NCBI GenBank assembly: GCA_963708515.1
Contig: CAVPSX010000012.1
Span: 341,247-405,246, forward strand
From: an uncultured delta proteobacterium
GTDB lineage: Bacteria > Desulfobacterota > Syntrophia > Syntrophales > Fen-1087
Direction of reading: 5' to 3'
DNA: 64,000 nt
In this document: piece after piece, positions 18,230 through 47,146 of the stretch
Layout of the letters: each line of letters opens with the position of its first letter
How positions within the stretch are numbered: position 1 is the stretch's first letter
The notes under the pieces: model-generated
Told to the model about the DNA's origin: nothing
Database searches by the model: none
What the model saw: only the letters and a program-made list of their open reading frames with translations
Translations under genes and position numbers: made by a program

Positions 18230-20932
18230 TTATGCCAGAGGTCGGCCTCCATTGAGCTTCTCATAGATCCGGATGTATTCGGCAATCATGCTGCTGAGGT
18301 CGTACCGCTGCCTGGCTTCTTTCATGATACGTTTCATCTGGGTCTCCCGGATATCATCGGGTTTGCGGTGAAAGGCCAGGCTTTTTTCCAGGGCATACCA
18401 GAGGCCGCCGGCGTCGAAGTCCCGAAAGAGAAATCCGTTGCCCACATCCTGCGGGGCGCCGTCCGCTTTCAGCCGCAGTTCCCGTATTTTATCATGGTAG
18501 CCGCCCGTGTCGCGGTTCGTGGCCGTGGCCCCGAAGAGATTGCCAACCTGGTCGATCTGACCGCAGGGTTCGTAGAGTGAAGCTCCGAAGACATCGCTGG
18601 CCGCGGCATAGCCCAGCATGGCCAGCGGTTCGCTGAAGGGCTGGTATGTAATTTTTCCCCGGGAGCTGTATGCGATGCGTCCGAGAATATCCGCATGCGT
18701 CCGGTCGTTGCCGACGCCGTCGGCGACAATGGCAATTTGAACATTTTCGTAAATGTTAATAAAATGCCCGCACACCGCCTCCAACAGCTCGACGCCTTTC
18801 TGAAACGGATCCAGCCGGGAAGGCCAGAAAAACAGGATGGCATGGGGGTTCGCATACAGGCCCGTTTTTTGCTGAAAGGCCACGAGATTCTCGCGCTTGG
18901 CCTCCAGCAGGGGATCATCCGGGCCGTATCTTCTGGCGAGATCATCACGGTTTTCCGGATACATACTGGAGGCTGGCGCGTTGATAATGGACCATGCGGA
19001 GTCGTGGTAATACTTGGCCTTGACTTCATTGCGGACACTTGCGGGCACCAGCGGACGATCCAGAAAATAGTCGTCCACCACTTCCCGCAGGAATCGCTCA
19101 CCCACAAAGTTGATGATCGTGGCATTTTTGATGGCCGTCGCCTGACAGTCAATGCATGCTTTGCCGTAAGCCTCCGAATAGTAAAGATTATTTTCAAAGT
19201 TTCGCAGATTAACCCCGCTTAGCATCTCTATCGGCAAATCAGCCGTGAAAACATTGTGAACCGTATGCAGCACAGGCAGGTCGGTGGACTTTGCATAGGC
19301 CGTGATCGCTCCGCCGGCCATCCAGTCGTGGCTGTGGACAATCAGCCTTCCCTCGTGTTTTGCACGAACCATTTTTATGATGTTATTTACAATTTCGCGC
19401 TGAAATTCGGCAGCTGTGGCAATCGGATCGCAGGAATAGGCGCTCAGATTCTCGGCAAAGATCGCCGAGCTGACAAGATGGATATTTTCTGAATCAATCT
19501 TGTAGCGGATCGCGCGCCAGCCCCGTTCATCGAGATCGCTCTCGCGTTGAAACCGCCTCTTCAAATTCAGCGTGACCAGATGGACATCGATGCCCCTTTC
19601 CCACAGACCTTCACAGAGTGCCGAAACGACCTCTCCCTGACCGCCGCTCTTCCCGGAAATGTATCTGGCCAGGGCGCCCATATCGTCCGGCAGTCTCCCC
19701 GTTTCCGGCGTGATCATCATGAGGGCCGTCCGCTCCTGTTTCCGTACGATCTCAAAACGCCTGATGGCCCAGTCCAGATAATCAATCTTGCGCGTCAGAA
19801 TATGCGAGGGCTGTGCGATAGAACCGCCATAGGGATTGAAATAAGCGTGGACAGCATGATCCTCTCCGATGCGTTCATGAATAAAATAAACATGGTCCGA
19901 TGTGGTCAGGTGCCGCCAGTTGGTCAGCAGATCCCCGCCGGCCCAGCGGGCATTCCGTTCCATGTTCTGAATGTCCTGAAAGAGTTCATACTGTGTCAGG
20001 GTGCCCAGCCAGCCGAAGGTATCCCGGCCGGCGTCAGCCCAGGAAGAGGTCGCCAGTCCGTGAATATCCAGTGTCGGACAATCGACATCCCTGAATTTTT
20101 CAGCAATCTCACTGGGGTTGGCGGCAACGATGTTCGCATGTCTGGCCAGGGCCTCCGGAAGTCCCCGCCAGAATTCGAAAATACCCTTGTCTTCCCAGAT
20201 GTGTTCACCGATATGTTCATAGTCGTAACCCAGCAGGACAGCCTCGCCGTCAATTTTGGCGATAAAGGCGGCGTACTGCTCCGGGGCGATAGGCTGATGC
20301 GGAAAACGGAAAGCTACGTCATCGCTGAGTTCGCGATTCCGGGGAATGACAGTCAAATGACTGTCCTTTGCCCTGAAGACGGCATTCGGCGAAACAGTGC
20401 GATCGGTCTGCGTGAACATGTCGTTCCGCTTTTCACACAGAATGGAAAGATAACCCATATCGGCCACGACATCGGCGATATGGTTGTTGAACATGAGCTC
20501 AGTATTTCGGAAAGATGTCGGGAAAATGCCGAAAAGCTTCCTGATCTTGTCCCGGTGCAGGGAGACCTGGTCACGGAATTCCTGCTTATGGGGATCCTCG
20601 AAAAGACTGCTTAGCGAGTGGTAGTAAGTCTCATCGAGGTATTCCACCTGGTTGTGCTCCCGGCCGGCGTCGAGCAGTTCCTGGAGGGCGCGGATGACGT
20701 CCGGCTGATAGATTTCCGCTTGCTCCAGAAACACACCGGACATGCTCAGGGTGATTTTGAACCCTTTGTTTTGCGCGATAAGCTCCGTAAACATGCGGGT
20801 TGCCGGCAGGTAGCATTTGTCTGATACCTTCAGAAATATCTCCCGGTTCGACGTGTTCCATAGGAACTTGTCCCGGTCCGGATGGAGGCGGAAAGGTTGA
20901 TGAAGCTGAAAGTAGAACGTGACCAGCGGCAT
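18230..20932 (-). CDS. Fusion protein: N-terminal glycoside hydrolase family 57 domain plus C-terminal glycogen-synthase-like glycosyltransferase
   Basis: The N-terminus MPLVTFYFQLHQPFRLHP is typical of GH57. The C-terminal half has GlgA-like motifs (SGKSGGQGEVVSAL; HSHDWMAGG; PSRLDPFQKG; ASLYEPCGQIDQVG...TGGYHD). Confidence 0.8.
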   Translation of the reverse strand: MPLVTFYFQLHQPFRLHPDRDKFLWNTSNREIFLKVSDKCYLPATRMFTELIAQNKGFKITLSMSGVFLEQAEIYQPDVIRALQELLDAGREHNQVEYLDETYYHSLSSLFEDPHKQEFRDQVSLHRDKIRKLFGIFPTSFRNTELMFNNHIADVVADMGYLSILCEKRNDMFTQTDRTVSPNAVFRAKDSHLTVIPRNRELSDDVAFRFPHQPIAPEQYAAFIAKIDGEAVLLGYDYEHIGEHIWEDKGIFEFWRGLPEALARHANIVAANPSEIAEKFRDVDCPTLDIHGLATSSWADAGRDTFGWLGTLTQYELFQDIQNMERNARWAGGDLLTNWRHLTTSDHVYFIHERIGEDHAVHAYFNPYGGSIAQPSHILTRKIDYLDWAIRRFEIVRKQERTALMMITPETGRLPDDMGALARYISGKSGGQGEVVSALCEGLWERGIDVHLVTLNLKRRFQRESDLDERGWRAIRYKIDSENIHLVSSAIFAENLSAYSCDPIATAAEFQREIVNNIIKMVRAKHEGRLIVHSHDWMAGGAITAYAKSTDLPVLHTVHNVFTADLPIEMLSGVNLRNFENNLYYSEAYGKACIDCQATAIKNATIINFVGERFLREVVDDYFLDRPLVPASVRNEVKAKYYHDSAWSIINAPASSMYPENRDDLARRYGPDDPLLEAKRENLVAFQQKTGLYANPHAILFFWPSRLDPFQKGVELLEAVCGHFINIYENVQIAIVADGVGNDRTHADILGRIAYSSRGKITYQPFSEPLAMLGYAAASDVFGASLYEPCGQIDQVGNLFGATATNRDTGGYHDKIRELRLKADGAPQDVGNGFLFRDFDAGGLWYALEKSLAFHRKPDDIRETQMKRIMKEARQRYDLSSMIAEYIRIYEKLNGGRPLA

Positions 20933-21271
20933 TGTTCAATAACCCTCGTAAAGAAAGACTTATGACGCAAGTCCCCTATCTGAGAGAAACTCTACTTATT
21001 TAATATCACTCTGAATATGCCTTCGCGCAGATCATCTGGTTACAGGCTGTCGCCAAAATCAATATGCTATCAGGTGCATAAAATTATCACAGGGATGGGC
21101 ATGAATGCAATGAAAATGAAGGAGGCGACGCCGATTTTTCACCCTAAACAGGATATCTGAACTTCGGAGGCATGTCACTTTTTCAACTCCATGGGTTACA
21201 TAAATATGAGTCAATGTGGTGATCTCCAGAGGCATTTACATATCGGGTTCTTCCTGATATTAACCCCGTAT

Positions 21272-21295
21272 TCAATTCGTGTGTCAATTCGTGTT
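21272..21295. repeat. Tandem 12-nt direct repeat (TCAATTCGTGTG / TCAATTCGTGTT) in an AT-rich 500-bp intergenic region
   Basis: Read directly from the sequence, about 135 nt upstream of the 21431 ORF. It is a possible regulator binding site. Confidence 0.4.
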
Positions 21296-21430
21296 GCATT
21301 TATGACCATATTACCTTAAAATAAACAATAAGCATCAAGAATCTTCAACTTCGGTTAGGCCTGTGGTCAAATTGCAAACAACCCGACAATGAATGTCAAA
21401 ATCTCTAAGCTTTAAGAAAGGAGCAGTAAA

Positions 21431-21703
21431 ATGGAACCCAAACAGATTGCAAAGCAGCTGATTCAGTTCAACAAGGCCGCTTTCGACAACACCTTTGACG
21501 CGATGACTGTGCTGCAGGAGCAGATGGAAAAAATGATGGACATGTATCTGGGACAGTCACCCCTGCTCCCCGCAGAGGGAAAAAAGGCGATCAGCGACTG
21601 GCTCAAGGCCTATAAGAAAGGCCGTGCGGACTTCAAGGCTGCAGCGGATGAAAATTACAAGAAGGTAGAGGAATTTTTTACAGGTTATGGCAAAGGGAAA
21701 TGA
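21431..21703 (+). CDS. Small helical protein, phasin-like in composition (function unknown)
   Basis: 90 aa with a strong RBS (AAAGGAG). The helical repeat composition (QLIQFNKAAFDNTFDAMTVLQEQMEKMM...DWLKAYKKGRADFKAAADENYKKVEEFF) resembles phasin-type granule proteins. This is a weak, by-eye call. Confidence 0.45.
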   Translation: MEPKQIAKQLIQFNKAAFDNTFDAMTVLQEQMEKMMDMYLGQSPLLPAEGKKAISDWLKAYKKGRADFKAAADENYKKVEEFFTGYGKGK

Positions 21704-28849: not shown

Positions 28850-29719
28850 ATGTGCGCCATCAGTCAGGTTATTCTTCATCATGCCTGCCGCATTGCCGGT
28901 GAGATCGGTGCAAAGGCCGTTCTTGTTTATGCCGCCGTAGCTGACGATCTTCCTGTTGCCGACGACCCCGGCCTATGCATGAATATTATTATCGTCACCA
29001 GGGGGGATGAGGAAATCCCATCGAAATTCAAGAATTGCGGCGTCCAGATTCAAGTCCCCAACGTTAATCTCACGCGTGTCGGACAAATTAAAATCGCGAT
29101 TACGAAGGGCATTGCATTAGGCCTTTTCACACAGGGAGACAAACTGGTGTGCGTAAGCGGCGTCCCGCGGTTTGGCTATGTCGATAGTATTTTCGTCATT
29201 GACGTAGGTAAGGAATTTGAAATTCTGGTTTCCGGCAACTTCAGAGATCTGGCCCAGGGGGTTTATCCGGAAGTTTTCGGCGCGGTTATAAATCTGGCCA
29301 TCGAACTGGCTGCTCAGGGCCGGGAAGGCCGGAAGGTGGGAACGATTTTTGTTCTGGGAGACCATGAAAAGGTCATGCAATTGTCCCGGCAGATGATTAT
29401 CAATCCTTTCATGGGATACACAGACGAGCAGCGAAACATTCTCAATCCGGAACTCAAAGAGACCATCAAGGAGTTTTCCGCCATTGATGGCTCCTTTATC
29501 GTCAAAGACAACGGCACGATTGTTACCGCCGGCAGGCATCTGAATGCCGCAATGGACAGCAGGGATTTTCCCCAGGGACTTGGCAGCCGGCATATCGCCG
29601 CCGCCGGGATCACGAGTATTACCAATGCCATTGCCGTCGTTTTATCCGAATCGACGGGAAACGTCAGCGTTTTTAAAGACGGTAAAATCCTCGTCAGCAT
29701 CGAAAAACCAATCGACTAA
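28850..29719 (+). CDS. DisA_N/DAC-domain protein (diadenylate-cyclase-like, CdaZ/DacZ-type architecture)
   Basis: The C-terminal DAC signature is DGSFIV...[14 protein letters not shown]...[14 protein letters not shown]. The N-terminal alpha/beta domain resembles a pyruvate-kinase C-terminal-like domain. A GGGGGT RBS precedes ATG 28850. Confidence 0.72.
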
Positions 29720-29730
29720 CAGGAGGCATT

Positions 29731-32310
29731 ATGAGGTTCGATAAATTTACCCTAAGAGTTCAGGAGGCGTTGCAAGCCGCGCAGGCTCTGGCGTCACAGC
29801 AGGGACACCAGGGGATTGAACCGGAGCATCTCCTGACGGCATTTCTTGAGCAACCGGAGGGGATTACAGGCGTCATCCTGAAAAAACTGGGCGCCGATCC
29901 CGGTCAGATTACCTCAGAACTCAAGAAAGCGCTTGGCAAACAACCCCGTGTCGAAGGCGCCGGCCTGGGGCAGCCGGGTATGACGGCGGGTTTGAATCGT
30001 GTTCTCGATCTGGCCATGACCGAAGCGGCTCGCCTGCGGGATGAATATGTCAGTGCCGAGCACGTCCTGATCGTTATTTCAGATGACAAGGATAGCCCCG
30101 CTGCTAGGATTCTGCGTGCAGCCGGTGTGACCAGGGACGGCATCTTCCGGGTTCTGGTCGATATTCGGGGGAATCAGCGAATCACCGATCCCAACCCCGA
30201 GGACAAATATCAGGCATTAAAGCGTTATGCAAGAGATTTCAATGAATTGGCCCGGAAAGGAACATTTGATCCGGTCATCGGCCGGGATGAGGAAATCCGG
30301 CGCGTCATGCAGGTCCTTTCCCGCAGGACAAAGAATAATCCGGCCCTGATCGGAGAACCTGGCGTTGGCAAAACGGCCATTGTGGAGGGGCTGGCTCAGA
30401 GAATCGTTAATGGCGACGTTCCGGAGAATCTCAAGAACAAACGTGTTGTGGCCCTCGATATCGGCGCCCTGGTGGCAGGCGCCAAGTACCGGGGTGAATT
30501 CGAAGACCGCCTGAAGGCCGTCCTTAAAGAAGTGACGGACGCCCAGGGGGAAATCATCCTGTTTATTGATGAGATTCACACGGTGGTCGGAGCCGGCGCT
30601 GCCGAAGGGTCGGTTGACGCCTCCAACATGCTGAAACCTGCCCTTGCACGGGGTGAATTGCGCTGCGTCGGCGCAACGACCCTCAACGAGTACCGGAAGT
30701 ATATTGAAAAGGATCCTGCTCTGGAGCGGCGTTTTCAGCCCATTGTGGTCAAGGAACCCTCTGTCGAGGATACGATCGCTATTCTTCGCGGCCTGAAGGA
30801 GCGCTACGAGGTTCATCACGGGGTAAGGATTAAGGATTCTGCCATCATTGCCGCAGCTACCCTCTCGAATCGCTATATCTCCGACCGTTTTCTTCCCGAT
30901 AAAGCTGTCGATCTGATTGACGAATCGGCTTCTCGCCTGAGGATCGAACTGGACAGCATGCCCGCCGAAATAGACGTCATTGACCGGAAAATCATCCAGA
31001 TGGAAATAGAAAAGCAGTCGCTCATCAAGGAAACGGATAAGACCTCCTGTCGAGAGACGCAGCAAGCTTGATCACGAACTGGCAGAACTCAGAGAATCCA
31101 TGGACCACATGAAACGCCAATGGACTATCCGAAAAGGAGGCGATAAAAAAAATTCAGGCGGTCAAGAGCCGCATTGAAGTCCTGCAAAACGGAGGAAATA
31201 AATGCCCAGCGGGAAGGGAATCTGGCTCGGGCAGCGGAGCTACGCTACGGTCAACTTGTTGAATTGAATAAAGAACTGGAAGCAGAACAGCTTAAGCTGA
31301 TGGAGGCCCAAAAGGATGAAAGAATGCTCAAGGAAGAGGTGGATGCAGAGGATGTGGCCGATGTCGTGGCCAACTGGACCGGCATCCCCGTGGCCCGTAT
31401 GCTGGAGAGCGATGTCCAGAAGCTGATCCACATGGAGGAAAGGCTCAAAGAGCGCGTGGTCGGCCAGGCAGAGGGAATCGCAGCCGTTTCCAGTGCGTTG
31501 CGCAGAGCCCGGTCCGGGCTGCAGGACCCGAACCGCCCCATCGGTTCATTTATCTTTTTGGGTCCCACAGGCGTTGGAAAAACAGAACTCGCCCGGGCGC
31601 TTGCCGAATTCATGTTTGACTCTGAACAGGCCATGATCCGGATCGATATGTCGGAATATCATGGAAAAACACGCCGTGGCCCGCCTGATCGGGGCGCCTC
31701 CGGGATATGTCGGCTATGATGAGGGCGGATATCTGACCGAAACGGTCCGACGAAAGCCCTATGCGGTCATTCTGTTTGACGAGATCGAAAAAGCCCACCA
31801 TGACGTATTCAACATTCTGCTGCAGATCCTCGACGACGGACGCCTGACCGACGGTCACGGACGGACGGTGGATTTCAAACATGCCATTGTGATCATGACC
31901 TCCAACATTGGCAGCCACTTCATGCAGGACACGGCCATCGATGACGAGGAAAGAAGAGCACGAACCATGGAAATGTTGCGGGCCGGTTTCAAGCCGGAAT
32001 TTCTCAACCGGATCGATGATATCATCACCTTCAGAGCCCTGGACATGGACGACATTGATCGGATATCTGGATCATCCAGTTGGATCTGATCCAGAAACGG
32101 TTGTCGGAGCGGAAAATAACGCTGACATTGACAGAGAAGGCAAAAAAATATATAGCGAAAATCGCCTATAGCCCGATTTATGGAGCAAGACCGTTAAAAC
32201 GGGCATTGCAGAAGATGATTCTGGATGACCTGTCCATGCTGATGTTGGATGGTACATTCGCTGACGGGGATAGCATCCGGGTTGATCTGTCCAAAAAGCG
32301 GTGTCCTTAA
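29731..32310 (+). pseudogene. clpB: Chaperone ClpB, interrupted by about 5 frameshifts in this sequence
   Basis: All ClpB segments are present in order but spread over four ORFs plus a short unlisted bridging frame: the N-domain, NBD1 ([15 protein letters not shown]), the M-domain, NBD2 ([15 protein letters not shown]; MSEY|[19 protein letters not shown]) and the C-terminus (YGARPLKRALQ). Frame changes occur near 31048, 31130, 31187, 31660 and 32065. Confidence 0.9.
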
Positions 32311-32426
32311 TTTTCAGAAAATCAATAAAATGTAGAATTTACATAAATATCTTGAGCTTACCTCCACCAAATAAGGAAAATTACAGACTGATCAAAAGTA
32401 TACAATCCGCATAAGAGGAGGAAAAA

Positions 32427-32855
32427 ATGGAAGAAAAGAAAGACAAATCCTTTATCATCCGCGACAGACGGATTTTTGGTGAAACAGGGGACCTGCGTCA
32501 AGACGGCGAATCTCAGCCGGAAGCAAACCCCGTCGAAACGCAGGATGAACCCGAACGGCGGCCTCCCGTGACGGAATCACTGGAATCTGAGCGTGAAGAA
32601 GCCTTCCCGGAGGTGAGTTTTGTCAATTTTATCTTATCATTGAGCACCACGGCCATGTATCATTTCGGAGATTTTCCCGATCCGGTATCCCAGAAGGCTC
32701 AAAGAAACCTGACTGCAGCCAAGCAGACCATCGATATTCTCGGCATGCTCAGATCCAAAACGGAGGGGAATCTCGATAACAATGAAAAATCCCTGATAGA
32801 CGGACTTCTGTTTGAGTTGAGGATGCGCTATGTCAAAGAAAAGGAGCATCCATGA
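32427..32855 (+). CDS. DUF1844-like protein
   Basis: The region FVNFILSLSTTAMYHFG...AKQTIDILGMLRSKTEGNLDNNEKSLIDGLLFELRMRY matches the DUF1844 pattern. The ORF is intact and its stop overlaps the ispE start (ATGA). Confidence 0.65.
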   Translation: MEEKKDKSFIIRDRRIFGETGDLRQDGESQPEANPVETQDEPERRPPVTESLESEREEAFPEVSFVNFILSLSTTAMYHFGDFPDPVSQKAQRNLTAAKQTIDILGMLRSKTEGNLDNNEKSLIDGLLFELRMRYVKEKEHP

Positions 32856-33695
32856 TCCGGAAACTATCGCCGGCCAAGGTCAACCTCTATCTGCGCGTCC
32901 TGCGCAAACGCCGGGACGGTTATCATGATATTGCCAGTCTCATGCAGCGGATCAGTCTCTGCGATGAAATGATATTCAGACCGGCAGCGGAGGGGATCCG
33001 GGTCCGATGCCCCGGCAGTTCCCTGCCCGAAAATGAGGGAAATATCGTTTTCCGGGCAGCGGAAGCCTTCTTTCACAGGCCGACCACGCAAATCAAGGCA
33101 TTGATATCACGATCAATAAAATAATCCCCGTCGCCGCCGGTCTGGGCGGAGGCAGCTCCAATGCGGCGACGACACTCATGACCTTGAACGAGATCTTCGG
33201 ATGTCATTACTCAACGGATGATCTCATGAAGATCGGGGTCACGCTGGGGGCGGATGTCCCCTTTTTTATTTTTGCAAAAACGGCATGGGCCTTCGGCATC
33301 GGTGAGCGCCTCCAGGTTGCCGCAGGCATCCCACTCCTTCTCGCTGCTCCTCGTTAATCCCCGCTTTGAACTCTCCACAAAATTGATTTATCAAAATCTT
33401 AATTTTAAATTGACAAACAAAAGAATTCGTTATAGCATCCCGCGATTTTTGACGGTCCATGACTTGGCAAAAGGGCTATTGAACGATCTGGAGAACCGTT
33501 TCGATCAGAATACATCCCGTGCTGGCGGATATTAAAGAATCATCTGATGCAATGCGGCGCCCTTGGGCGCTCTTATGTCCGGCAGCGGGCCCACCGTCTT
33601 CGGTCTTTTTGAAAAGGAATGAACAGGCCATCGCCGCCGAAAAAGCGTTGGCCGGCATGAGCGGCTGGTCTTTATTCAGAGCGGCGTCCATCTGA
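32852..33695 (+). pseudogene. ispE: 4-diphosphocytidyl-2-C-methyl-D-erythritol kinase, interrupted by about 6 frameshifts in this sequence
   Basis: IspE segments are recoverable across three frames: SPAKVNLYLRVL..RDGYHD; [17 protein letters not shown]; GADVPFF; [12 protein letters not shown]; NDLE; HPVLADIK; MSGSGPTVFGLF. Frame changes occur near 33097, 33330 and four times within 33500-33625. Confidence 0.85.
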
Positions 33696-33753
33696 CTTTC
33701 CTGATCATCCCTTGCGAAGATCCGGTTGAGCAATGCTCATATCAGAAGGCTTT

Positions 33754-33828
33754 TGGGGCGTCGTCAAGCGGTAAGACACAAGGTTTTGGTCCTTGCATTC
33801 GGGGGTTCGAATCCTCCCGCCCCAGCCA
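33754..33828 (+). tRNA. tRNA-Gln (anticodon UUG), CCA encoded
   Basis: Acceptor stem TGGGGCG/CGCCCCA, anticodon stem CAAGG/CCTTG with loop TTTTGGT, T-arm GGGGGTTCGAATCCTCC, and discriminator G plus CCA. Confidence 0.95.
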
Positions 33829-33862
33829 ATAGAAACATGGCGGCAGCCATGAGAGGAATTCA

Positions 33863-34805
33863 ATGCTTGAAAGAATCCGAGTTTTTTCGGGAAATTCAAA
33901 TGTAGTCCTGGCGGAAAAGATCTGCGAGCAATCTGGGCGTTCCCCTGGGAAAAGCCAGCGTGACCACCTTCAGCGACGGCGAGACCCGGGTGGAAATCAA
34001 CGAAAATGTCAGAGGCATGGATGTTTTCATTATCCAGTCCAGCTGCCCGCCCGTCAATGTCACGCTCATGGAACTGCTGATCATGATCGATGCCATGAAG
34101 CGGGCATCGGCAGACCGCATCACGGCCGTCATTCCCTATTACGGTTATGCCCGCCAGGATCGAAAAGTGGCGCCGCGGGCTCCCATTACGGCAAAGCTGA
34201 TCGCCGACCTGATCACGACGGCCGGCGCCCATCGCGTTCTGTCGATGGACCTTCACGCCGGTCAGATCCAGGGATTCTTCAACATTCCCGTGGATAATCT
34301 TTTCGCCACGCCGGTCCTTTTAGAATACATGAAAAAGAATTTTCAAAATGATATCGTTATCGTTTCTCCCGATACCGGTGGCGTGGAGCGGGCACGGGCC
34401 TTTGCATCACGCCTCGGGGCGAATCTTGCCATCATCGACAAACGCCGCGAAGGGCCGAACGAAGCACAGGTCATGAATATCATCGGCCATGTCAGAGATA
34501 AAAAGGTCATCATTCTGGATGACATGATCGATACGGCGGGAACGGTTGTCAGTGCCGTCTCCGCGTTGAAAGAGGCCGGCGCCGTTGAGGTATCCGTCTG
34601 CGCCACGCATCCGGTGCTTTCCGGACCGGCCATTGAAAGGCTTGAAAAATCCGACATCAAAGAGGTGATTGTAACGGACACGATTCCCATGAATGATGCG
34701 GCGCTGGCCTGCAAATGTATCAAGGTGCTCTCTGTTGCTTCATTGCTCAGCGAAGCGGTGAGGCGAATTTACTATAATGATTCCATAAGCTCATTATTCA
34801 TATAG
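33863..34805 (+). pseudogene. prs: Ribose-phosphate pyrophosphokinase, one frameshift near 33931
   Basis: The N-terminus [23 protein letters not shown] is in one frame and (LGVPLGKAS)[27 protein letters not shown]... continues in the next. Removing one base at about 33931 restores a canonical Prs. Confidence 0.9.
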
Positions 34806-34814
34806 GAGGATTGG

Positions 34815-35468
34815 ATGGAGGCGATTGCATTAAACGCCCTTATTCGCAAGGAAACCGGCAAGGGCCCGGCCCGAAGATTGAGAATGGCGGGAGGCGTACC
34901 GGCCGTATTTTACGGCCCCCATGCGGAGGCGATGCTTTTATCCGTCAATGCGTCGGATTTGCTCAAATTGCTGAGGAAGCGCGAAGAAAATGTGTTCATC
35001 CGCCTGATGATCGACGATGGCGACAAGAAGTATGAAAAAATGTCCATAGTCAGGGAAGTCCAGATGGAACCCGTTTCCAGGCGCTTCTATCATGCGGATT
35101 TTTACGAAATCAGCATGGACCGCCCGTTCACGTTCGATGTCCGTATTCATTTTAACGGCATACCGGCAGGGGTCGGCATCGGCGGTGAGCTGCAGCATGT
35201 GAAGCGTGAGCTCAAAGTGTCCTGCATTCCGACGAAACTTCCAGATTTTATCGCGGTGGACATCAGCGGCCTTAATATCGGAGATCAATTCAGAGTGAGC
35301 GATATCAAGGGGATGGATGACCTTACGCTGCTTGATGCCGGTGAGATCGTCATTGCCTCCATTTCAGCGCCGAGAGCAGCGGCTGTCAAAACCGAAGCGG
35401 AAGAGCCTGAAGCACCGGCCGAACCGGAGGTCGTCGGCCGAAAAGGTGCAAAAAGCGAGAGCGCATAA
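34815..35468 (+). CDS. rplY: 50S ribosomal protein L25 / general stress protein Ctc
   Basis: The N-terminus reads RKETGKGPARRLRMAGGVPAVFYG. It is the long Ctc form with an acidic, alanine-rich tail. Confidence 0.9.
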   Translation: MEAIALNALIRKETGKGPARRLRMAGGVPAVFYGPHAEAMLLSVNASDLLKLLRKREENVFIRLMIDDGDKKYEKMSIVREVQMEPVSRRFYHADFYEISMDRPFTFDVRIHFNGIPAGVGIGGELQHVKRELKVSCIPTKLPDFIAVDISGLNIGDQFRVSDIKGMDDLTLLDAGEIVIASISAPRAAAVKTEAEEPEAPAEPEVVGRKGAKSESA

Positions 35469-35510
35469 AGTACGCGACACTCAGGAGGAACAAGCGAGAG
35501 GATCACTGTT

Positions 35511-36101
35511 GTGAAACTGATCGCCGGTCTCGGAAATCCGGGAAGCAGATATCGGTTCAGCCGCCACAACATGGGCTTCCTGGTTCTGGATCGGCTGGCT
35601 GACCAGTATCAGATCAACATAGGTCAGCGGGGATTCGGCGCCTTTTTCGGAAAGGGAAGCATATCCGGTGATCCCGTCCTGCTCGTCAAGCCGCAGGATT
35701 ACATGAACCTGAGCGGCGGTCCAGTGAAAAAGTTCTTTGATTATTTCAGAATTGCTCTTGAGGATGTCATAGTCGTTCATGATGACCTGGACCTGCCATT
35801 CGGAACCATACGTATGAAGACCGGCGGCGGTCATGGAGGGCACAAGGGGTTGATCTCTATCATCGACCACCTGGGCGATGCGGATTTTAACCGGGTCAGG
35901 CTTGGCATCGGCAAACCTGAACGTAAGGAAATGGTGGATAGCTATGTACTTTCACCTTTTTCTGCAGAAGAGGCGGATCGATTGCCGCCCGTGATTGACA
36001 CTGCGGCTGAAATGCTGGGAGAAATGCTTTCTTCAGGGATTCAGGCGGCTATGAGCAAGTATCATGGTAAAACCATAAATAATTTTAAAGAGGAGGTTTA
36101 A
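35511..36101 (+). CDS. pth: Peptidyl-tRNA hydrolase
   Basis: GTG start, with KLIAGLGNPGSRYRFSRHNMGF and HDDLDLPFGTIRMK..GGHGGHKG. The ispE-prs-ctc-pth synteny is conserved. Confidence 0.95.
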   Translation: MKLIAGLGNPGSRYRFSRHNMGFLVLDRLADQYQINIGQRGFGAFFGKGSISGDPVLLVKPQDYMNLSGGPVKKFFDYFRIALEDVIVVHDDLDLPFGTIRMKTGGGHGGHKGLISIIDHLGDADFNRVRLGIGKPERKEMVDSYVLSPFSAEEADRLPPVIDTAAEMLGEMLSSGIQAAMSKYHGKTINNFKEEV

Positions 36102-36103
36102 TT

Positions 36104-38545
<2,442 letters not shown>

Positions 38546-38670: not shown

Positions 38671-38826
38671 CCGGTGAAAAATGGTTCGCAAGCGGCGAAT
38701 GAAAGTTTTTTCGCATTTCCAGAAATTAGACTAATTTACTGATTTCAAACATATTTGAGCATCATAGTATTTCAAGCGAAAAAATTTTGAGCCGCGGCGA
38801 AGCCATTTTTCAAAGGTCTGCACCGG
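38671..38826. repeat. About 155-bp imperfect palindromic (MITE-like) element
   Basis: The arms CCGGTG..GAAAAATGGTTCGCAAGCGGC..AAAGTTTTTTCGC and GCGAAAAAATTTT..GCCGCGGCGAAGCCATTTTTC..CACCGG are reverse complements (about 45 nt, imperfect). They flank a roughly 60-nt AT-rich centre. Confidence 0.6.
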
Positions 38827-38924
38827 TGGATACGGAATTGCGGCGTCTGCCGTTTCATCAAGATTTATTAATAAATATATTCCAGGCATGCTGAACCGAA
38901 TCCATCCGGAGAAATGGTTTTTTT

Positions 38925-40016
38925 ATGGGTTTTTGTTGCGGCATTATCGGACTTCCCAATGTGGGGAAATCGACGATTTTTAACGCCCTGACGGCTGCCG
39001 GCGCCGAGGTGGCCAATTATCCCTTCTGCACCATCGATCCCAATATCGGCATTGTCCCTGTTCCGGACGAGCGGCTCGAAAAAATTGCGGCGATCGTCAA
39101 GCCTCCGAAAATCACGCATACCATGATCGAATTCCTTGATATTGCCGGGCTTGTGAAAGGCGCCAGCCGGGGTGAAGGCCTCGGGAACCGTTTTCTCGCT
39201 CATATCCGTGAAGTGGATGCCCTTCTGCACATTGTCCGCTGCTTTGATGATCCCAATATTGTTCATGTGGGCGGCTCGATCGATCCGGTCCGGGACATCG
39301 ACGTCATCAACACTGAGCTGATCCTGGCGGATCTGGAAACCATTGAAAAAAGGATTGAAAGAACGGAAAAACTGCTGAGAGCGGGCGACAAGTCCCTCCG
39401 CAAGGCTTTGGATGTCTATGCGCAATGCCGGGATGCGCTGGGGCGGGGCCTTGCGGTCAGAAATGTCCCGCTGGCCGATGGCAAAAACATTCTCGATGAA
39501 CTGGGTTTATTGACAGCCAAAAATACCCTGTACGTGGCCAACGTCAGCGAGGCCGTCCTGAAGGGAAAATCGGATTATGTACAGCGGGTTGAAGAAACAG
39601 CAAAGCGCCAGGAGGCAAAGGTCATCGTGATCTGCGGAGACATGGAAGCGGAGATGACAACGCTTGCAATAGAGGAACGTCAGGCTTTTCTTGAAGACCT
39701 GGGATTGCACGAATCAGGACTCCATCAACTGATCCGGACGGGTTATGAACTGCTGGGTCTGATTACTTTTTATACGACGGTTGGTCCGGAACTGCGCGCC
39801 TGGACGATCCCCTCCGGAACAAAGGCCCCGGTCGCCGCCGGAAAGATCCACAGCGACATGGAAAAAGGATTCATCCGGGCGGAAATCCTCCATTATAATG
39901 ATTTTATAAAAGCAGGGGGGCTGCCCCAGGCCAGGGAAAAGGGACTGCTGCACATCGAGGGCAAGGATTATGAGATCCGTGACGGAGATATTGTTCTGTT
40001 TCGTTTCAATGTGTAA
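38925..40016 (+). CDS. ychF: Redox-regulated ribosome-binding ATPase YchF
   Basis: Contains GIIGLPNVGKSTIFNALT and NTELILADLE, plus a C-terminal TGS-like region (FIRAEI...GKDYEIRDGDIVLFRFNV). Confidence 0.95.
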   Translation: MGFCCGIIGLPNVGKSTIFNALTAAGAEVANYPFCTIDPNIGIVPVPDERLEKIAAIVKPPKITHTMIEFLDIAGLVKGASRGEGLGNRFLAHIREVDALLHIVRCFDDPNIVHVGGSIDPVRDIDVINTELILADLETIEKRIERTEKLLRAGDKSLRKALDVYAQCRDALGRGLAVRNVPLADGKNILDELGLLTAKNTLYVANVSEAVLKGKSDYVQRVEETAKRQEAKVIVICGDMEAEMTTLAIEERQAFLEDLGLHESGLHQLIRTGYELLGLITFYTTVGPELRAWTIPSGTKAPVAAGKIHSDMEKGFIRAEILHYNDFIKAGGLPQAREKGLLHIEGKDYEIRDGDIVLFRFNV

Positions 40017-40060
40017 AAGGAGTCGTAGAACGAATTTCCGACAGATATGAGCGGTCGCCA

Positions 40061-42271
40061 ATGAATTCCAGCAACAACTCCCGGTGGTTGATCATAGCCG
40101 CCGTGGCATCCTTCTTCATAATCATCATCATAACCGCTTTTTCGTTCCGGGATCAATGGCCATTGGATCAAAGGGTTTTTGTGGTCGGCATTCTGGGCAT
40201 CGCAGTCGGTTTGCTGGCCGCTCTGGGTTTGGCCATGCACGTCATGATTCATCGCTACATCCGCCCTCTGAGGAAAATTGCCGAGGAAACCAACCTGATC
40301 ACATCGGTCAATCCGTCACACCGCATTGACATTAAAGGCGGAAAGGAAGTCCTGCGTCTCGCTCAAGTCATTAATGAAAAAGCGGACCGCTTCGAGGAAC
40401 TGCAAAAAGATGTATGGCGTAAGATTGAGCTTGCCACGGCGCAGTCCGAGGAGGAAAAGAATATCCTTGCGGCCATCGTGTCGGAACTACCGGAAGGGAT
40501 ATTGATCTGTAACGCGGAAGGCCAGATCCTTTTATACAACAAACAAGCCAGGCGCTATCTTGAAGGCGACGAGCAGAGAACTTTTCCCGACCTTGATTCA
40601 AACCACTCTGCAACCGGCGCCGGGAATCCCTTCATCGGCCTGGGACGATCCGTGTTTGGTGTGATTGACAAGAACCTCATTGTCCCTGCCCTTGACGAGA
40701 TAGCGGGCAAACTGGAACGCAGGGAAGTACAGGCAACGGCTCATTTTATCACGCCGGGGGCCCAAACCAGTCTGCTGCGTACGGAAGCGGTCCCGATCCT
40801 GAGCCATATCGGGCATCTCACAGGATTTGTCCTGATATTCCAGGATATTATAAAACAGATCGAAACTGGCAGCCATTGGAGTTTTCTGCTGCAATCTCTG
40901 GCAAAGGGCATCCGTCCTTCCCTGGCAAATATCAGGACAGCCATTGAAGCCGTCCTCGAACACCCGGATATGGACCCTTCACAACTGGATGGCTTCAAAA
41001 ATATCATACACAAAGAATCCTTAAAATCAGGCGCCACCCTGGATGAGATGGTTTTTGATTATTCCGGCCATACCGGCGCCGGACGGCCTCTTGTGCGGAT
41101 GCTCGGCAAGGATCTGCTGGAGACGATAAAAAGAAGGGCTGAAGACCGTTTCGGCATTGCTGTGAAAATTGTCTACTCTGCCGACCCCAACTGGATTAAA
41201 GTTGATGCTTATTCCATCGTCCTGGCCATTCTCTTTGTACTGAACCGGCTGCGGCGCGAGACCAAAGCCGATGAATTTACCTGCAAACTGGAAAGAGAGG
41301 GGAAATTCGCAAACCTTGATCTGATTTGGCAGGGGAAACCATTAAAAATCCAGACCCTGCGTGAATGGGAGACAGAGGCGGTCATGGTCGAAAAAGAGGG
41401 TATCCCGTCAACCCTCAGAGAGGTTATTGCGCATCACGGCGCAAAGATGTGGCCGGCGATTCTGAGGCAAACCGCCGGTAATAACCGTCCGGGAATATGG
41501 CCCCGCTCTTATGAGATGTCGCAGGATAAGTCCGGACTTCGTTTGTTTTTCCCGGATGTTGAAATGCCCGAACCGGATACGCTCCGAAAGATCATGGTCG
41601 TACCGGAAAGCCGGCCGGCGTTCTATGATTTTGACCTTTTCAGCCAAGCCGGCCAGACGCCTGAACTGGACAACCGCCCGTTAACGGAGCTGACTTGCAC
41701 CGTCTTCGATACGGAAGCTACGGGATTATTTCCACAAGTGGGAGATGAAATCATCTCCATCGGCGCCGTGCGCATCGTCAACGGCCGCTTGCTGCGCGAA
41801 GAGCAATTCGATCAACTGGTCAATCCGCAACGGGGTTACTGGCAACAATCCATACCCATCCATGGCATTCAGCCCGAAATGCTTGAAGATCAGCCTGCCA
41901 TCGACAAGGTGCTCCCCCTGTTCCACCGATTTGCCGAAGATAGCATTCTCGTCGCCCATAATGCGGCCTTCGATATGAACCTGCTCCGGATGAAAGAGGC
42001 CGTCTCCGGCGTGAAATTCATCAATCCCGTACTGGACACCCTGCTGCTTTCGGCGGTGGTTCATCCCGCCCAGAACCATCACACGCTGGAGGCGATTGCC
42101 GAGCGCCTTGGCGTCAGTATCGTGGGCAGACATACCGCGCTGGGAGATGCGCTGGCAACCGGAGAGATATTCCTGAAGCTGATTCCGCTGTTGGCACAAA
42201 TGGGCATACACACCCTGGGAGCGGCCCGACTGGCTTCTCAAAAGACCTACTATGCCCGTTTCAAGTATTGA
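40061..42271 (+). CDS. Membrane sensor (TM-HAMP-PAS-like, degenerate histidine-kinase-like core) fused to a DEDDh 3'-5' exonuclease (DnaQ/epsilon-like) domain
   Basis: Two N-terminal hydrophobic helices and a HAMP-like linker (IRPLRKIAEETNLI...). The HisKA-like helix SLAKGIRPSLANIRTAIEAVL has K where the phosphoacceptor H is expected. The exonuclease motifs are FDTEATG, HNAAFD and HTALGDALATGE. Confidence 0.75.
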   Translation: MNSSNNSRWLIIAAVASFFIIIIITAFSFRDQWPLDQRVFVVGILGIAVGLLAALGLAMHVMIHRYIRPLRKIAEETNLITSVNPSHRIDIKGGKEVLRLAQVINEKADRFEELQKDVWRKIELATAQSEEEKNILAAIVSELPEGILICNAEGQILLYNKQARRYLEGDEQRTFPDLDSNHSATGAGNPFIGLGRSVFGVIDKNLIVPALDEIAGKLERREVQATAHFITPGAQTSLLRTEAVPILSHIGHLTGFVLIFQDIIKQIETGSHWSFLLQSLAKGIRPSLANIRTAIEAVLEHPDMDPSQLDGFKNIIHKESLKSGATLDEMVFDYSGHTGAGRPLVRMLGKDLLETIKRRAEDRFGIAVKIVYSADPNWIKVDAYSIVLAILFVLNRLRRETKADEFTCKLEREGKFANLDLIWQGKPLKIQTLREWETEAVMVEKEGIPSTLREVIAHHGAKMWPAILRQTAGNNRPGIWPRSYEMSQDKSGLRLFFPDVEMPEPDTLRKIMVVPESRPAFYDFDLFSQAGQTPELDNRPLTELTCTVFDTEATGLFPQVGDEIISIGAVRIVNGRLLREEQFDQLVNPQRGYWQQSIPIHGIQPEMLEDQPAIDKVLPLFHRFAEDSILVAHNAAFDMNLLRMKEAVSGVKFINPVLDTLLLSAVVHPAQNHHTLEAIAERLGVSIVGRHTALGDALATGEIFLKLIPLLAQMGIHTLGAARLASQKTYYARFKY

Positions 42272-42331
42272 TTAAAATGGTATCGCTATGGCACTCAAAG
42301 CCGCATATCTAAAACAGCAAGGAGACTGATC

Positions 42332-44224
42332 ATGGGCCATGAAGCCTATCCATTTCTACAAAATCTGCCTCCGTTTTCTTTTCTGCCCGATGCGGAAGTT
42401 GAAAAGATCGTCGCGGACCTCGTCGCCGTGAACCATCCAAAGGACGTCTTTTTGCTCATTCAGGGCCGATCAAAAGTCGAACACCTCCATATTATAAAAA
42501 AGGGGGCTGTCGAACGGTATTACAGGGAGAGAAACGAGGAATTGATGCGCGCGCGGTTGCGGGAAAGAGACTTCTTCGGGGGTATCTCCATGCTTTTGCA
42601 CGACGGCATCTCCGTGTGTATGTTCAGAACGACCGAAGATTCCGAATTGTATTTGCTCCCCAAACAGAGGTTTCTCGATCTCTGTTCACGCTATCCGGTC
42701 TTTTCCGATTTTTTTACAGACATGCTGGGCAAGTGGATGCTCGATAAATCCTATGCAATGCCCATCGCCAAAACCATGCATCCGAAAGAAGAATTGCCGC
42801 AAATCTTCAACCAGAGCGTCGAAAACATATTTTCGAGAAAACTGGTTTCTTGCGATACCCATACGTCCATTCAGGAAGCCGCAGCCATGATGGGCAACAA
42901 CCGATGCAGCTCCATCCTTGTCAAGGAACCCCATGGCGATTTTACGGGCATCATGACCGACCGGGATTTGAGAAATAAAGTAATCATCCAGGCGACCTGC
43001 GACATGACCAGGACGGTTTCCCAAATCATGTCCTCCCCCTTGAGCACCGTCCCGGCCGCGGCCCCGGTCTCGGATGCGCTCATGATCATGATGATGAAAG
43101 ATATCAAACACCTTGCGGTCACGGACGCCGATGAAAAGGTGATTGGAATTGTCACCAACAAGGACATCCTCGGGGCCCATGGACAGTCGCCTTTTTTCCT
43201 GCTGCGGGAGATTCATGCAGCGGTGAGCCTTGAGGAGATAACGGACAAGCAGAGCCGGTTGCCCGGACTGATTCAGAGCCTCATCAGCAGCGGCGCCAAG
43301 GCCATGAATGTGGCCCGCATGGTATCCGTCATTTCAGATGCCATCCTGAACAGACTCATCGGCTTTGCAATCGCTGAGTTGGGCCCGCCGCCGGTCCGGT
43401 TTGCATTTATGATCGTGGGCAGCGAGGGCAGGCGGGAGCAGACGCTCAAGACAGACCAGGACAATGCCATCGTTTATGAAGATCCCCCGGGGGAAACGGA
43501 AGAGGCCGTCAGAGGCTACTTTCTGGCATTCGGAGAAAAGGTCTGCAACTGGCTGGATCAGGTGGGATATACCTTCTGCAACGGGGGCGTCATGGCAAAA
43601 AACCCCCAATGGTGCCAGCCCCTGTCCGTCTGGAAAAAATATTTTTCCACCTGGATCGGAACCGCGGAACCGGTGGCCCTGATGCAGTCGAGCATCTTCT
43701 TCGATTTCCGCTGCGGCTATGGCGATTTGGCCATCATCGACGAACTGCGCCAACATCTTTTTCATTCCCTTGGCGAGCATCCCAACTTTTTCCGATATCT
43801 GGCGGAAACCACTCTTGAACGCAAACCGCCGCTGGGCCTTTTCCGGACTTTTATCGTCGAATCGAAGGGCGAGCACCGCGATACCCTCGATGTGAAGAGC
43901 CCCATGATCACGATTGTCAACTATACCCGTCTCTATGCTCTCAGGAACGGCATTGAGGAAACGAATACCCAGGAAAGGATGTACCAGCTCTTCCTCAAGA
44001 AACGCCTCTCCTGGGAGGATTATCATGACTTCGAGCAGGCCTACAGTTTTCTCATGCAGCTGAGACTGGCCCGGCAGCTGACCGCACTGATCAGGGAAAA
44101 CGCGAAGCCTGATAATTATATCAATCCGAACAAGCTCTCACGCCTGGAGCAGACCATGCTCAAGGAAATCTTTAAGCGGATTGAAAAGTATCAGGAAAAG
44201 ATGGTCTTTGACTTCTGGAAATGA
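42332..44224 (+). CDS. cNMP-binding, tandem-CBS, DUF294 putative nucleotidyltransferase with a DUF294_C substrate-binding domain
   Basis: N-terminal cyclic-nucleotide-binding fold (FFGGISML), two CBS motifs, the NTase motif IVGSEGRREQTLKTDQDNAIV, and a helical C-terminal domain. Confidence 0.85.
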   Translation: MGHEAYPFLQNLPPFSFLPDAEVEKIVADLVAVNHPKDVFLLIQGRSKVEHLHIIKKGAVERYYRERNEELMRARLRERDFFGGISMLLHDGISVCMFRTTEDSELYLLPKQRFLDLCSRYPVFSDFFTDMLGKWMLDKSYAMPIAKTMHPKEELPQIFNQSVENIFSRKLVSCDTHTSIQEAAAMMGNNRCSSILVKEPHGDFTGIMTDRDLRNKVIIQATCDMTRTVSQIMSSPLSTVPAAAPVSDALMIMMMKDIKHLAVTDADEKVIGIVTNKDILGAHGQSPFFLLREIHAAVSLEEITDKQSRLPGLIQSLISSGAKAMNVARMVSVISDAILNRLIGFAIAELGPPPVRFAFMIVGSEGRREQTLKTDQDNAIVYEDPPGETEEAVRGYFLAFGEKVCNWLDQVGYTFCNGGVMAKNPQWCQPLSVWKKYFSTWIGTAEPVALMQSSIFFDFRCGYGDLAIIDELRQHLFHSLGEHPNFFRYLAETTLERKPPLGLFRTFIVESKGEHRDTLDVKSPMITIVNYTRLYALRNGIEETNTQERMYQLFLKKRLSWEDYHDFEQAYSFLMQLRLARQLTALIRENAKPDNYINPNKLSRLEQTMLKEIFKRIEKYQEKMVFDFWK

Positions 44225-44788
44225 TCAGTAACCGACGAGATAGATAAAACTTAAAATAAAGACGAAGGAGACCGCGACACAGGCCACGGCCCTTTTCATG
44301 GGAAAACCGGTGAGCAGGTGGAGCACCTTGGTCATCAGATACAGAAAATAGATGAAGGCGGAAAGCATGATCAGGACTGTGAGCGGGCTACCTGAAATCG
44401 ACCCTCCCGCCTGCCGTAAAAAGGTTAAATGCGTGTTGGCCGCCAGCAGCACGCCGTATGGAAGAAACGCATAGCCCACGGCAATAAAAACATCGATGAA
44501 ACGCGAGGGGGCTCCTCCGAGCACTTTGCCGATGCCCCACAGGAGCAGCGTAATGCCCAGCTGGGAAGCGATCACGGCCATATAGCCAAAAACAACATAA
44601 AAAGCGGCTTCTGCGGTATTAATCTGATCGGCGCCGACGACACTCCTGTAATAGAACATCGTCAGTCCGTGGATCTGTGCGACCGTAAAGACAATCAGCG
44701 GGGAAAGCAGCAGGCTCCTTTTATCGCGGATGCTGGCGGCGACTTTCCCATCCACGGCAGCGATGTCCCACAGCCAGTTCAATAACAT
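44225..44788 (-). CDS. Yip1-like polytopic membrane protein
   Basis: Five predicted TM segments with a Yip1-type layout. The start is trimmed to MLLNWLWDI, which has a GGAAGGGGAG RBS. The stop codon abuts the stop of the convergent DUF294 gene. Confidence 0.55.
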   Translation of the reverse strand: MLLNWLWDIAAVDGKVAASIRDKRSLLLSPLIVFTVAQIHGLTMFYYRSVVGADQINTAEAAFYVVFGYMAVIASQLGITLLLWGIGKVLGGAPSRFIDVFIAVGYAFLPYGVLLAANTHLTFLRQAGGSISGSPLTVLIMLSAFIYFLYLMTKVLHLLTGFPMKRAVACVAVSFVFILSFIYLVGY

Positions 44789-44822
44789 GTTCTCCCCTTC
44801 CCTTGTTCTCAATACTTATTTG

Positions 44823-44858
44823 CAATCAGGGGAACCGCCGCAGCGGTTCCCCTGATTG
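44823..44858 (-). other. Perfect 16-bp stem / 4-nt loop hairpin between the symporter and Yip1 genes
   Basis: CAATCAGGGGAACCGC-CGCA-GCGGTTCCCCTGATTG. There is no U-tract on the transcribed (minus) strand, so it is more likely an intercistronic processing or stability element or a partial terminator. Confidence 0.7.
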
Positions 44859-44899
44859 GATTGGTCTATAGCCCGAAATTTAGATATTTACCATTAGTT

Positions 44900-46568: not shown

Positions 46569-46849
46569 ACCTCCTTCTGCGCGTTGGCCTTAGCGTCATC
46601 GATTTTGGTCAAGACGCGGACAACGAAGTAGATGAAAGCGATGACACCAATATAGGCGATGAAGTTCTGATAAAAGAATGGAAACGGGAACCCCCAGACG
46701 TAGACGTCCAACAGGCCCGGGAAGGGAAGCATGAACAATACGCCCATGGCGGAACACATGCAGATCACCGTACTGACAGAGACAACGAAAAGCTCTTTTT
46801 TATAAATGCGATCATTGGCTTCCGTTGCACTACTTTTTTGTTGTGCCAT
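46565..46849 (-). CDS. DUF4212 small membrane protein (putative solute:sodium symporter small subunit)
   Basis: 94 aa with two TM helices and the WGFPFPFFYQNFIAYIGVIAFIYF motif. Its stop overlaps the SSS start (ATGA). Confidence 0.8.
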   Translation of the reverse strand: MAQQKSSATEANDRIYKKELFVVSVSTVICMCSAMGVLFMLPFPGLLDVYVWGFPFPFFYQNFIAYIGVIAFIYFVVRVLTKIDDAKANAQKEV

Positions 46850-47098: not shown

Positions 47099-47146
47099 TT
47101 TATAAAAAGCGCACACTATTCGGGAAGAAAAAAATCAATGCTTTTT

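Follow-up and report, generated by a model that had tools for sequence, protein, structure and literature searches.

Reading frames of clpB, ispE and prs

Within the 64,000-nucleotide stretch of DNA analyzed here (the window), three neighboring genes, clpB, ispE and prs, are broken by frameshifts, while a DUF1844 gene and a tRNA gene lying among them are unbroken. At least two of the three are normally essential, and the locus raises the question whether the organism has lost these genes or whether the frameshifts belong to the sequence as it was assembled. The features concerned are the following:

29731–32335, + strand: clpB, frame broken by 7 insertions, 865 aa when repaired
32427–32855, + strand: DUF1844 gene (PF08899), unbroken, identical protein on at least 15 other contigs
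32852–33695, + strand: ispE (GHMP kinase), frame broken by 5 insertions and 1 deletion, 279 aa when repaired
33754–33828, + strand: tRNA-Gln (UUG), unbroken (RF00005, 56.6 bits)
33863–34805, + strand: prs (ribose-phosphate pyrophosphokinase), frame broken by 1 insertion at 33926, 313 aa when repaired

As given, clpB is distributed over the ORFs 29731–31071, 31174–31719, 31661–32089 and 32080–32310, ispE over 32852–33124, 33178–33357 and smaller pieces, and prs over two ORFs, one from 33863 and one at 33960–34805. Taking out 15 bases and putting one G back restores full-length ORFs for ClpB, IspE and Prs (865, 279 and 313 aa), which bears out the view of an initial annotation of this DNA that all three can be reconstructed. 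The repaired ClpB has the same length as that of the population contig L001 and differs from it in 13 amino acids; the repaired IspE and Prs differ in 6 and 1 amino acids, respectively, from the near-identical genes of L001 and L002, again at equal length. In these genes the domains Clp_N, AAA, AAA_2 and ClpB_D2-small are found in ClpB, GHMP_kinases_N and _C in IspE, and Pribosyltran_N and Pribosyl_synth in Prs; once the frame is restored, the identity of each protein is given by a full-length family-domain match.

For comparison, the window was aligned with 19 independent contigs from short-read metagenomes (JGI, Logan and ENA) that represent the same population. This reference set reveals 16 single-base indels that are private to the window, 15 of them insertions and 1 a deletion, all located from 31046 to 33926:

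31046 C, 31125 C, 31177 A, 31660 C, 32065 A, 32074 A, 32291 C: insertions in clpB
32375 G: intergenic insertion
one G after 33073: deletion in ispE
33335 T, 33493 G, 33534 A, 33568 C, 33618 A: insertions in ispE
33726 T: intergenic insertion
33926 G: insertion in prs

The frameshifts reported by the initial annotation are thus real and clustered; its count of about 12 (5, 6 and 1 in clpB, ispE and prs) was slightly understated, as 7, 6 and 1 indels lie in these genes and 2 in intergenic DNA. It had missed 32074, 32291 and both intergenic events, and had placed the others to within ~25 nt. Its description of the events as mostly 1-nt insertions agrees with the 15:1 excess (p=5e-4); the homopolymer involvement that it also proposed does not stand, since no indel lies in the CAAAAC and AAGG runs to which it pointed, and among the 15 inserted bases 8 are unlike either neighboring base. 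Local enrichment is pronounced, at ~5.6 indels per kb in the patch versus ~0.05 per kb elsewhere in the window, where we found three comparable events, a lower bound, compared with about four claimed before; at the window-wide rate, at least 16 indels in 2.88 kb have a Poisson probability of 2e-15.

Each of the 16 indels is missing in every contig covering its site (3–9 contigs per site), and the population contigs encode unbroken ClpB, IspE and Prs of 865, 279 and 313 aa. The comparison with the orthologous region in close relatives, one of the checks proposed at the outset, hence favors a localized problem of sequence quality, consensus or assembly over decay, as had been suspected. Genuine pseudogenization, in which the strain would have lost clpB, ispE and prs and would survive via second copies or by another route, accounts for the broken state of the genes in the sequence as given; against it stand the unbroken genes in all other sampled members of the population, the presence of indels in intergenic DNA as well (32375, 33726), and an insertion bias of 15:1 that is opposite to the deletion bias of bacteria. 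Such a deletion bias in bacterial pseudogenes was reportedly described by Mira, Ochman and Moran in 2001. Programmed frameshifting and transcriptional slippage were rejected: the orthologs form one uninterrupted frame each in the close contigs, as they do in the majority of the 80 related loci, and a search for a common motif among the 16 indel sites found none.

Private substitutions and a second haplotype

The indels are accompanied by substitutions that are equally private to the window, and both are confined to one tract, which contains a clean sub-segment:

30642–34127: tract of ~3.5 kb with 66 private substitutions and all 16 indels
32376–32990: clean sub-segment (intergenic DNA, DUF1844 gene and start of ispE) with 0 indels and 1 private substitution (32579)

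Beyond the limits of the tract, several population contigs show 100% identity to the window: there are zero differences to L001 at 29540–30434, all 2483 of 2483 positions are identical to L091 at 34334–36816, and L097 and L099 are likewise at 100%. Within the genes, the substitutions are 40 synonymous and 14 non-synonymous in clpB, 10 and 1 in prs, and 57 and 21 when clpB, ispE and prs are pooled; in clpB and prs, third positions are strongly over-represented. Substitutions that are mainly synonymous and at third positions point to real alleles from a functional gene rather than to random errors or neutral decay. For pseudogenization this is a further difficulty: 16 indels stand beside only ~66 substitutions in which purifying selection is still visible, whereas neutral decay that yields 16 indels should bring far more substitutions and no codon-position bias. 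We therefore regard a true loss of the three genes as very improbable.

The source of the private alleles can be narrowed down considerably. Of the 66 private alleles, 63 are present in L011, a different species from the window organism, and L012 has all but one of those within its coverage; other outgroups match only ~50–80% of them. Across this region, L011 and L012 are ~87–88% identical. The imbalance of 63 matching versus 3 non-matching alleles (binomial p=1e-15) means that the window is essentially without a branch of its own and lies between two known haplotypes, like a mixture and unlike a real lineage; only 3 sites match neither haplotype. Moreover, the foreign alleles occur singly among the common ones (125 runs versus 130 expected at random). 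A 39-mer with four private alleles (31545–31583), searched in the JGI metagenome contigs, had no match, and thus no clean copy of the private haplotype was found there.

The insertions themselves bear the mark of the same two haplotypes. In 13 of the 15, a single SNP column is represented twice in tandem, by the common allele and by that of L011/L012, as in GGA[C][T]ATCC at 31125, GGA[A][T]GAAC at 33618 and TGC[G][A]GCAAT at 33926; among 20,000 simulated random insertions, which served as the null, 13.2% fit this pattern (p=3e-10). The indels outside these 13 cases are also at polymorphic columns: L011 has two extra bases at 33726, one of which corresponds to the insertion; the G lost after 33073 takes a polymorphic column with it; and for the insertion at 32065 a simple doubling does not fit.

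These observations weigh on the explanation by plain long-read noise, according to which random indels would have survived in a thinly covered or unpolished stretch without any second haplotype. The private and strongly clustered nature of the indels and the isolated insertions elsewhere in the window are what such noise would produce, and gene-breaking indels in long-read consensus sequences are well known (PMC9262707). Random errors, however, would not hit SNP columns and supply the other haplotype's allele for 13 of 15 insertions where 13% are expected; nor would they bring along 66 substitutions, most of them synonymous, that agree with one particular related species, with the near absence of substitutions that match neither haplotype. 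We consider noise of this kind unlikely.

The two unbroken elements are explained by the same comparison. L011-like alleles make up 3.6% in the DUF1844 gene versus 15–17% in the affected part of clpB (Fisher p=0.003), and DUF1844 is clean because its sub-segment is nearly free of admixture. The common haplotype and L011 show 0 differences in tRNA-Gln, which was spared because there was no SNP to double. Both elements had been described as unbroken before, and they are so at 32427–32855 and 33754–33828.

A mixed read pile-up as the proposed origin

From the sequence comparisons we conclude that the patch is, with high probability, an artefact of consensus or polishing that arose from a mixed pile-up of reads from two organisms, and that the frameshifts would be consensus errors and not mutations. 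The consensus of the ~3.5 kb patch (30642–34127) would have been computed from two kinds of reads: those of the organism itself, which carry the common haplotype of many short-read metagenomes, and those of the orthologous locus of a related, L011/L012-like species. At the ~584 sites at which the two differ, the own allele would have been chosen in ~87% and the foreign allele in ~13% of the cases, site by site and at random; at 13–16 sites both alleles would have been written consecutively, or in one case neither, whereby one base was gained or lost. Where the haplotypes are identical, as in tRNA-Gln, nothing could go wrong, and few foreign reads at 32376–32990 would have left the DUF1844 region clean. 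A mechanism by which the own haplotype is blended with L011/L012-like alleles would be more specific than the low coverage that had been suggested initially.

The contig, whose probable length is 549,320 bp, probably stems from a long-read or hybrid assembly of a metagenome, a sequencing and assembly technology that we infer, and the patch may mark the stretch covered by one mis-recruited read or a few of them. Because the foreign haplotype is visible only through the sites that it won, its exact sequence is likewise inferred; its contributor looks like a different species and would be L011/L012-like or a closer, unsampled relative. The preference of foreign alleles for locally conserved contexts that short-read cross-mapping would lead one to expect was not seen. 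The patch limits do not correspond to the local divergence between both species, and divergence in the flanks does not exceed that in the patch.

A biological route to the same mixture would be a real fine-scale recombinant between species, in which patchy mismatch repair of L011/L012-like donor DNA produced a mosaic. The private alleles are indeed donor-like, and L011 is unusually close to the window (96.6%) at 38823–42272, a few kb from the patch, so exchange between the lineages may happen. The donor alleles are, however, random singletons at about every seventh differing site and not contiguous tracts, recombination does not leave the two alleles of a SNP next to each other, and three genes would be inactivated, of which at least two are normally essential. 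Such a recombinant is hardly to be expected. The same holds for the wider idea of a true biological mosaic of ultra-fine grain with allele duplications, whose bearer would live with inactivated clpB, ispE and prs by means of other copies or cross-feeding; we give it very little credence. The tandem-allele structure is without a mutational explanation also in the case of pseudogenization. With a mixed pile-up as the preferred origin, clpB, ispE and prs are almost certainly normal in the organism, and second copies that compensate for their loss are not needed as an explanation.

Related artefacts and isolated events elsewhere in the window

Consensus indels and frameshifts that split genes in long-read data have been described (PMC9262707), and the patch resembles such nanopore or PacBio errors in that private single-base indels split conserved genes and are gone in comparison with short-read data. 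Classic long-read errors are homopolymer-associated and genome-wide, whereas those of the patch are 15:1 insertions, mostly outside homopolymers, restricted to 2.9 kb and located on inter-haplotype SNP columns. The second relative is strain collapse in strain-oblivious metagenome assemblers, where related genomes are merged and the consensus matches neither parent: Flye collapses strains of 97.6–98.7% identity into consensus contigs, and SNVs and indels in assembly evaluation can stem from strain differences (Strainberry paper, PMC8302730). Here, the contributor, at ~81–87% identity within the patch, looks like a different species and not like a co-existing strain, and only ~3.5 kb are affected by the collapse. 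A tandem retention of the two alleles, a specific signature of the patch, was not found described in PMC9262707 or PMC8302730. With the pseudogene clusters of decaying, for example host-restricted, genomes the locus shares several adjacent frameshifted genes; unlike true decay, it lacks sharing with sister genomes, relaxed selection and deletion bias, and its indels pick the SNP columns of another species.

Among the 80 related loci, split copies of these genes in the interior of contigs occur mostly in Microflora Danica (MFD) MAGs (L083, L072 and L078), which we take to be nanopore assemblies; L016 is the one clear case outside MFD. In L083, ClpB, IspE and Prs each contain multiple frameshifts as well. 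The patch has no biological significance, and its value lies in quality control: an annotation pipeline would take all three genes, two of which are normally essential, for pseudogenes, and completeness estimates or metabolic reconstructions would wrongly drop the MEP pathway kinase and PRPP synthase. Tools for frameshift repair in long-read assemblies exist, for example proovframe. The signature observed here is visible by sequence comparison alone and has three parts (private SNPs of a related species, their random interspersion, and insertions with both alleles in tandem), which could help to spot chimeric-consensus patches in long-read MAGs and to correct them.

Elsewhere in the window, two suspected split genes, 13939–14412/14310–15266 and 52534–53475/53303–53884, were rejected, each being two different genes. 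Exact-protein look-ups for 46565–46849, 47637–49772 and 42332–44224 gave no match, probably owing to differing called start codons. The three comparable events outside the patch concern EF-G (50071), an SSF symporter (near 45803) and intergenic DNA (54232), and a tie of these isolated insertions to the tandem-allele mechanism was not found. For EF-G, the alleles in relatives give no simple doubling. The SSF case, at a site that no relative covers, resembles a G/T doubling (ATT-G-TTC-GGC).

Gene row and independent contigs

At this locus a Syntrophales/Syntrophaceae-like bacterium has a conserved row of genes, in which a DAC-domain protein is followed by clpB, DUF1844, ispE, tRNA-Gln, prs, L25, pth and an H+-pyrophosphatase. 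As given, the window has four ORFs in place of clpB, two in place of prs and several in place of ispE, while two interleaved genes are whole:

32427-32855, DUF1844 gene, intact
33754-33828, tRNA-Gln, intact

ORF and RNA inspection thereby bears out in substance the initial annotation, which had described clpB, ispE and prs as broken and these two genes as intact. The tRNA-Gln is the sole RNA family match in the full 64 kb at Rfam gathering thresholds, at which the larger non-coding gaps (5070-5509, 20932-21431, 46849-47637, 53884-54533) contain no known RNA family.

For the orthologous region in close relatives, exact-protein matching with DUF1844 and then L25 yielded 19 short contigs belonging to unrelated metagenome assemblies (JGI, Logan and ENA). 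Given their identity of 96.3-100% to the window, most are assigned to the same population. ClpB (865 aa), IspE (279 aa) and Prs (313 aa) are each encoded there by one gene with the expected Pfam domains. At 16 sites, base-by-base alignment revealed a single-base indel that sets the window apart from every covering contig (3-9 contigs per site); these sites lie in clpB (7), ispE (6), prs (1) and intergenic sequence (2):

Insertions (15): 31046, 31125, 31177, 31660, 32065, 32074, 32291, 32375, 33335, 33493, 33534, 33568, 33618, 33726, 33926
Deletion (1): one G, after 33073

The flanks that these contigs cover (29540-31045 and 33927-36816) showed no indels, and taking out the 15 bases and putting back the G yields ORFs of exactly 865, 279 and 313 aa. 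Comparable events in the rest of the 64 kb number three as a lower bound (50071, ~45803 and 54232); the indel excess in the patch is ~100-fold, and the Poisson probability of at least 16 events within 2.88 kb at the window-wide rate is p=2e-15. Real pseudogenisation of clpB, ispE and prs is contradicted by these data: the genes are whole in all other population members, some indels are intergenic, and the 15:1 excess of insertions is opposite to the known indel bias, which is toward deletion. Judged by these alignments, the frameshift cluster is not a real biological feature. Programmed frameshifting was excluded because the orthologues are uninterrupted and no motif is common to the 16 sites.

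Private substitutions and doubled alleles

Between 30642 and 34127 the window has 66 substitutions that set it apart from all contigs; outside this tract it equals several of them exactly, with zero differences to L001 over 29540-30434, 2483/2483 matching bases in L091 and 100% identity to L097 and L099. The private substitutions are mainly third-position and synonymous (clpB, 40 synonymous and 14 non-synonymous; prs, 10 and 1), and are therefore neither random sequencing errors nor changes accumulated in a dead gene. They are best read as alleles of a functional gene, and the purifying-selection signature they keep likewise speaks against pseudogenisation.

The 66 sites were polarised by the nearest other genomes from a species-representative collection. 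The private allele is present at 63 of them in L011 (MAG MFD05942.bin.2.78) and at all covered sites but one in L012 (binchicken_co255_383), two MAG loci of related but different species that share only ~87-88% identity with the window in this region; other outgroups agree at only ~50-80% of the private sites. L011 and the common haplotype, the version shared by the independent contigs, differ at 584 sites inside the tract, where the window carries the common allele at 507, that of L011 at 74 and neither at 3. The L011-like sites are singly scattered (125 runs versus 130 expected at random), and no dependence of their placement on local sequence context was found. In a genuine lineage 2.2% from its sisters, roughly half of the differences are expected to be alleles derived on its own branch; the observed split is 63 shared with L011 versus 3 own (p=1e-15). 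Real inter-species recombination was rejected, as it predicts contiguous donor tracts instead of random singletons and never puts both alleles side by side. By its alleles, the tract lies on a straight line between two existing haplotypes, which marks it as a mixture and not as a product of descent or recombination tracts. A 39-mer of the private haplotype had no match among JGI metagenome contigs; exactly which genome was the second contributor is inferred from the sites at which its allele won.

Local alignments place the insertions on columns where the common haplotype differs from L011/L012, with both alleles held in tandem by the window.

Examples of tandem alleles (window sequence; common allele; L011 allele)
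31125: GGA[C][T]ATCC; T; C
32291: TC[C][A]AAAA; A; C
33493: GGA[G][A]ACC; A; G
33534: AA[A][G]AAT; G; A
33618: GGA[A][T]GAAC; T; A
33926: TGC[G][A]GCAAT; A; G

A strict tandem-allele test that allows for gap-placement ambiguity was passed by 13 of the 15 insertions, versus 13.2% of 20,000 simulated random insertions on the same background (binomial p=3e-10). The two exceptions also coincide with polymorphism: L011 carries two additional bases at 33726, one of which is the base inserted in the window, and the insertion at 32065 falls among four clustered columns that differ. The lone deletion takes away a polymorphic column. Plain random low-coverage noise does not explain this placement on SNP columns, nor the species-specific synonymous substitutions, and pseudogenisation offers no mutational explanation for tandem alleles. 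The local assembly or consensus problem favoured by the initial annotation is supported, and sharpened, by the tandem-allele structure together with the absence of all 16 indels from the independent contigs.

The tRNA-Gln was spared because the two haplotypes are identical there (0 differences), leaving no SNP to double. DUF1844 lies within sub-segment 32376-32990, where the L011-like fraction is 3.6% versus 15-17% in the affected part of clpB (Fisher p=0.003); with the foreign share near nil, the patch therefore consists of two affected stretches and a clean one between them. Positional chance alone would spare both genes with p ~0.05.

Proposed mechanism and apparent recurrence

Most simply, the patch would have arisen when a consensus was called or polished from a pile-up into which reads of a related species' orthologous locus had been drawn. 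Reads would agree wherever the haplotypes are identical; at differing columns the minority allele would win now and then, and if the aligner splits a mismatch into an insertion and a deletion, both alleles could be output. The assembly is probably long-read or hybrid, and the 3.5 kb patch may reflect the extent of one or a few mis-recruited reads. Compatible with this mechanism are the probable length of the source contig, 549 kb, and the fact that a de Bruijn graph assembler cannot emit k-mers absent from all reads. Also compatible, split ClpB, IspE or Prs in contig interiors among 80 related loci occur mostly in 'MFD' MAGs, presumably nanopore assemblies, with L016 the one clear non-MFD case.

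At L083 (MFD00709.bin.2.122, 6367-12384) ClpB is in six frame pieces and IspE and Prs in two each; one split gene each is present in L072 and L078, also MFD MAGs, and in L016. Artefacts of the same class seem to affect this locus in other MAGs too. The proposed mechanism also agrees with published descriptions of indel-driven frameshifts in long-read assemblies (PMC9262707) and of related genomes collapsed into consensus contigs (PMC8302730). Sequence similarity between the two haplotypes gave no explanation for the patch boundaries. The pattern provides a recognisable quality-control signature for chimeric-consensus patches in MAGs.

Isolated insertions and structural differences elsewhere

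Two further genes are split:

49828-51862, minus strand, EF-G, two ORFs: 50012-51862 (PF00009 through EFG_IV) and 49828-50283 (EFG_C)
44900-46568, minus strand, sodium:solute symporter (SSF, PF00474), two ORFs: profile positions 1-171 and 212-406

Compared with L103, a JGI short-read contig, EF-G has one extra base at 50071 (CCG[T]GCAACA), which splits the gene; no simple allele-doubling pattern was found there. The symporter ORFs, split near 45803, match consecutive halves of PF00474, and at their junction (ATG ATT G TTC GGC) the first base of a codon seems to have been written twice, as G and T. The event at 54232 is a single intergenic C (GACCAAG[C]TGACC) that is lacking in Logan contig L100, elsewhere 99.9% identical. 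These three insertions were not traced to the mixed pile-up mechanism.

A ~9.8 kb segment (40017-49817), encoding an RNase_T exonuclease-domain protein, a cNMP/CBS/DUF294 nucleotidyltransferase, a Yip1 protein, the SSF symporter and a GAF sigma-54 activator, is missing from the related loci L013 and L103, in which ychF is directly followed by EF-G; a contig of JGI 3300059473 has a matching arrangement, judged from gene layout alone. Either the segment is a variable island or the strains differ structurally here. Window positions 38823-42272 align gap-free to L011:16222-19671 at 96.6% identity, versus 87-88% upstream and 79% downstream, which could reflect recent inter-species exchange of ychF and the exonuclease gene or another assembly mixture. 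Finally, contig L092 matches the window almost exactly as far as ~35900 and is then ~13% divergent with small indels (window 35903-36307) across the pth 3' end and the start of the H+-pyrophosphatase gene, where other contigs remain identical; this switch looks like a strain-level recombination breakpoint.
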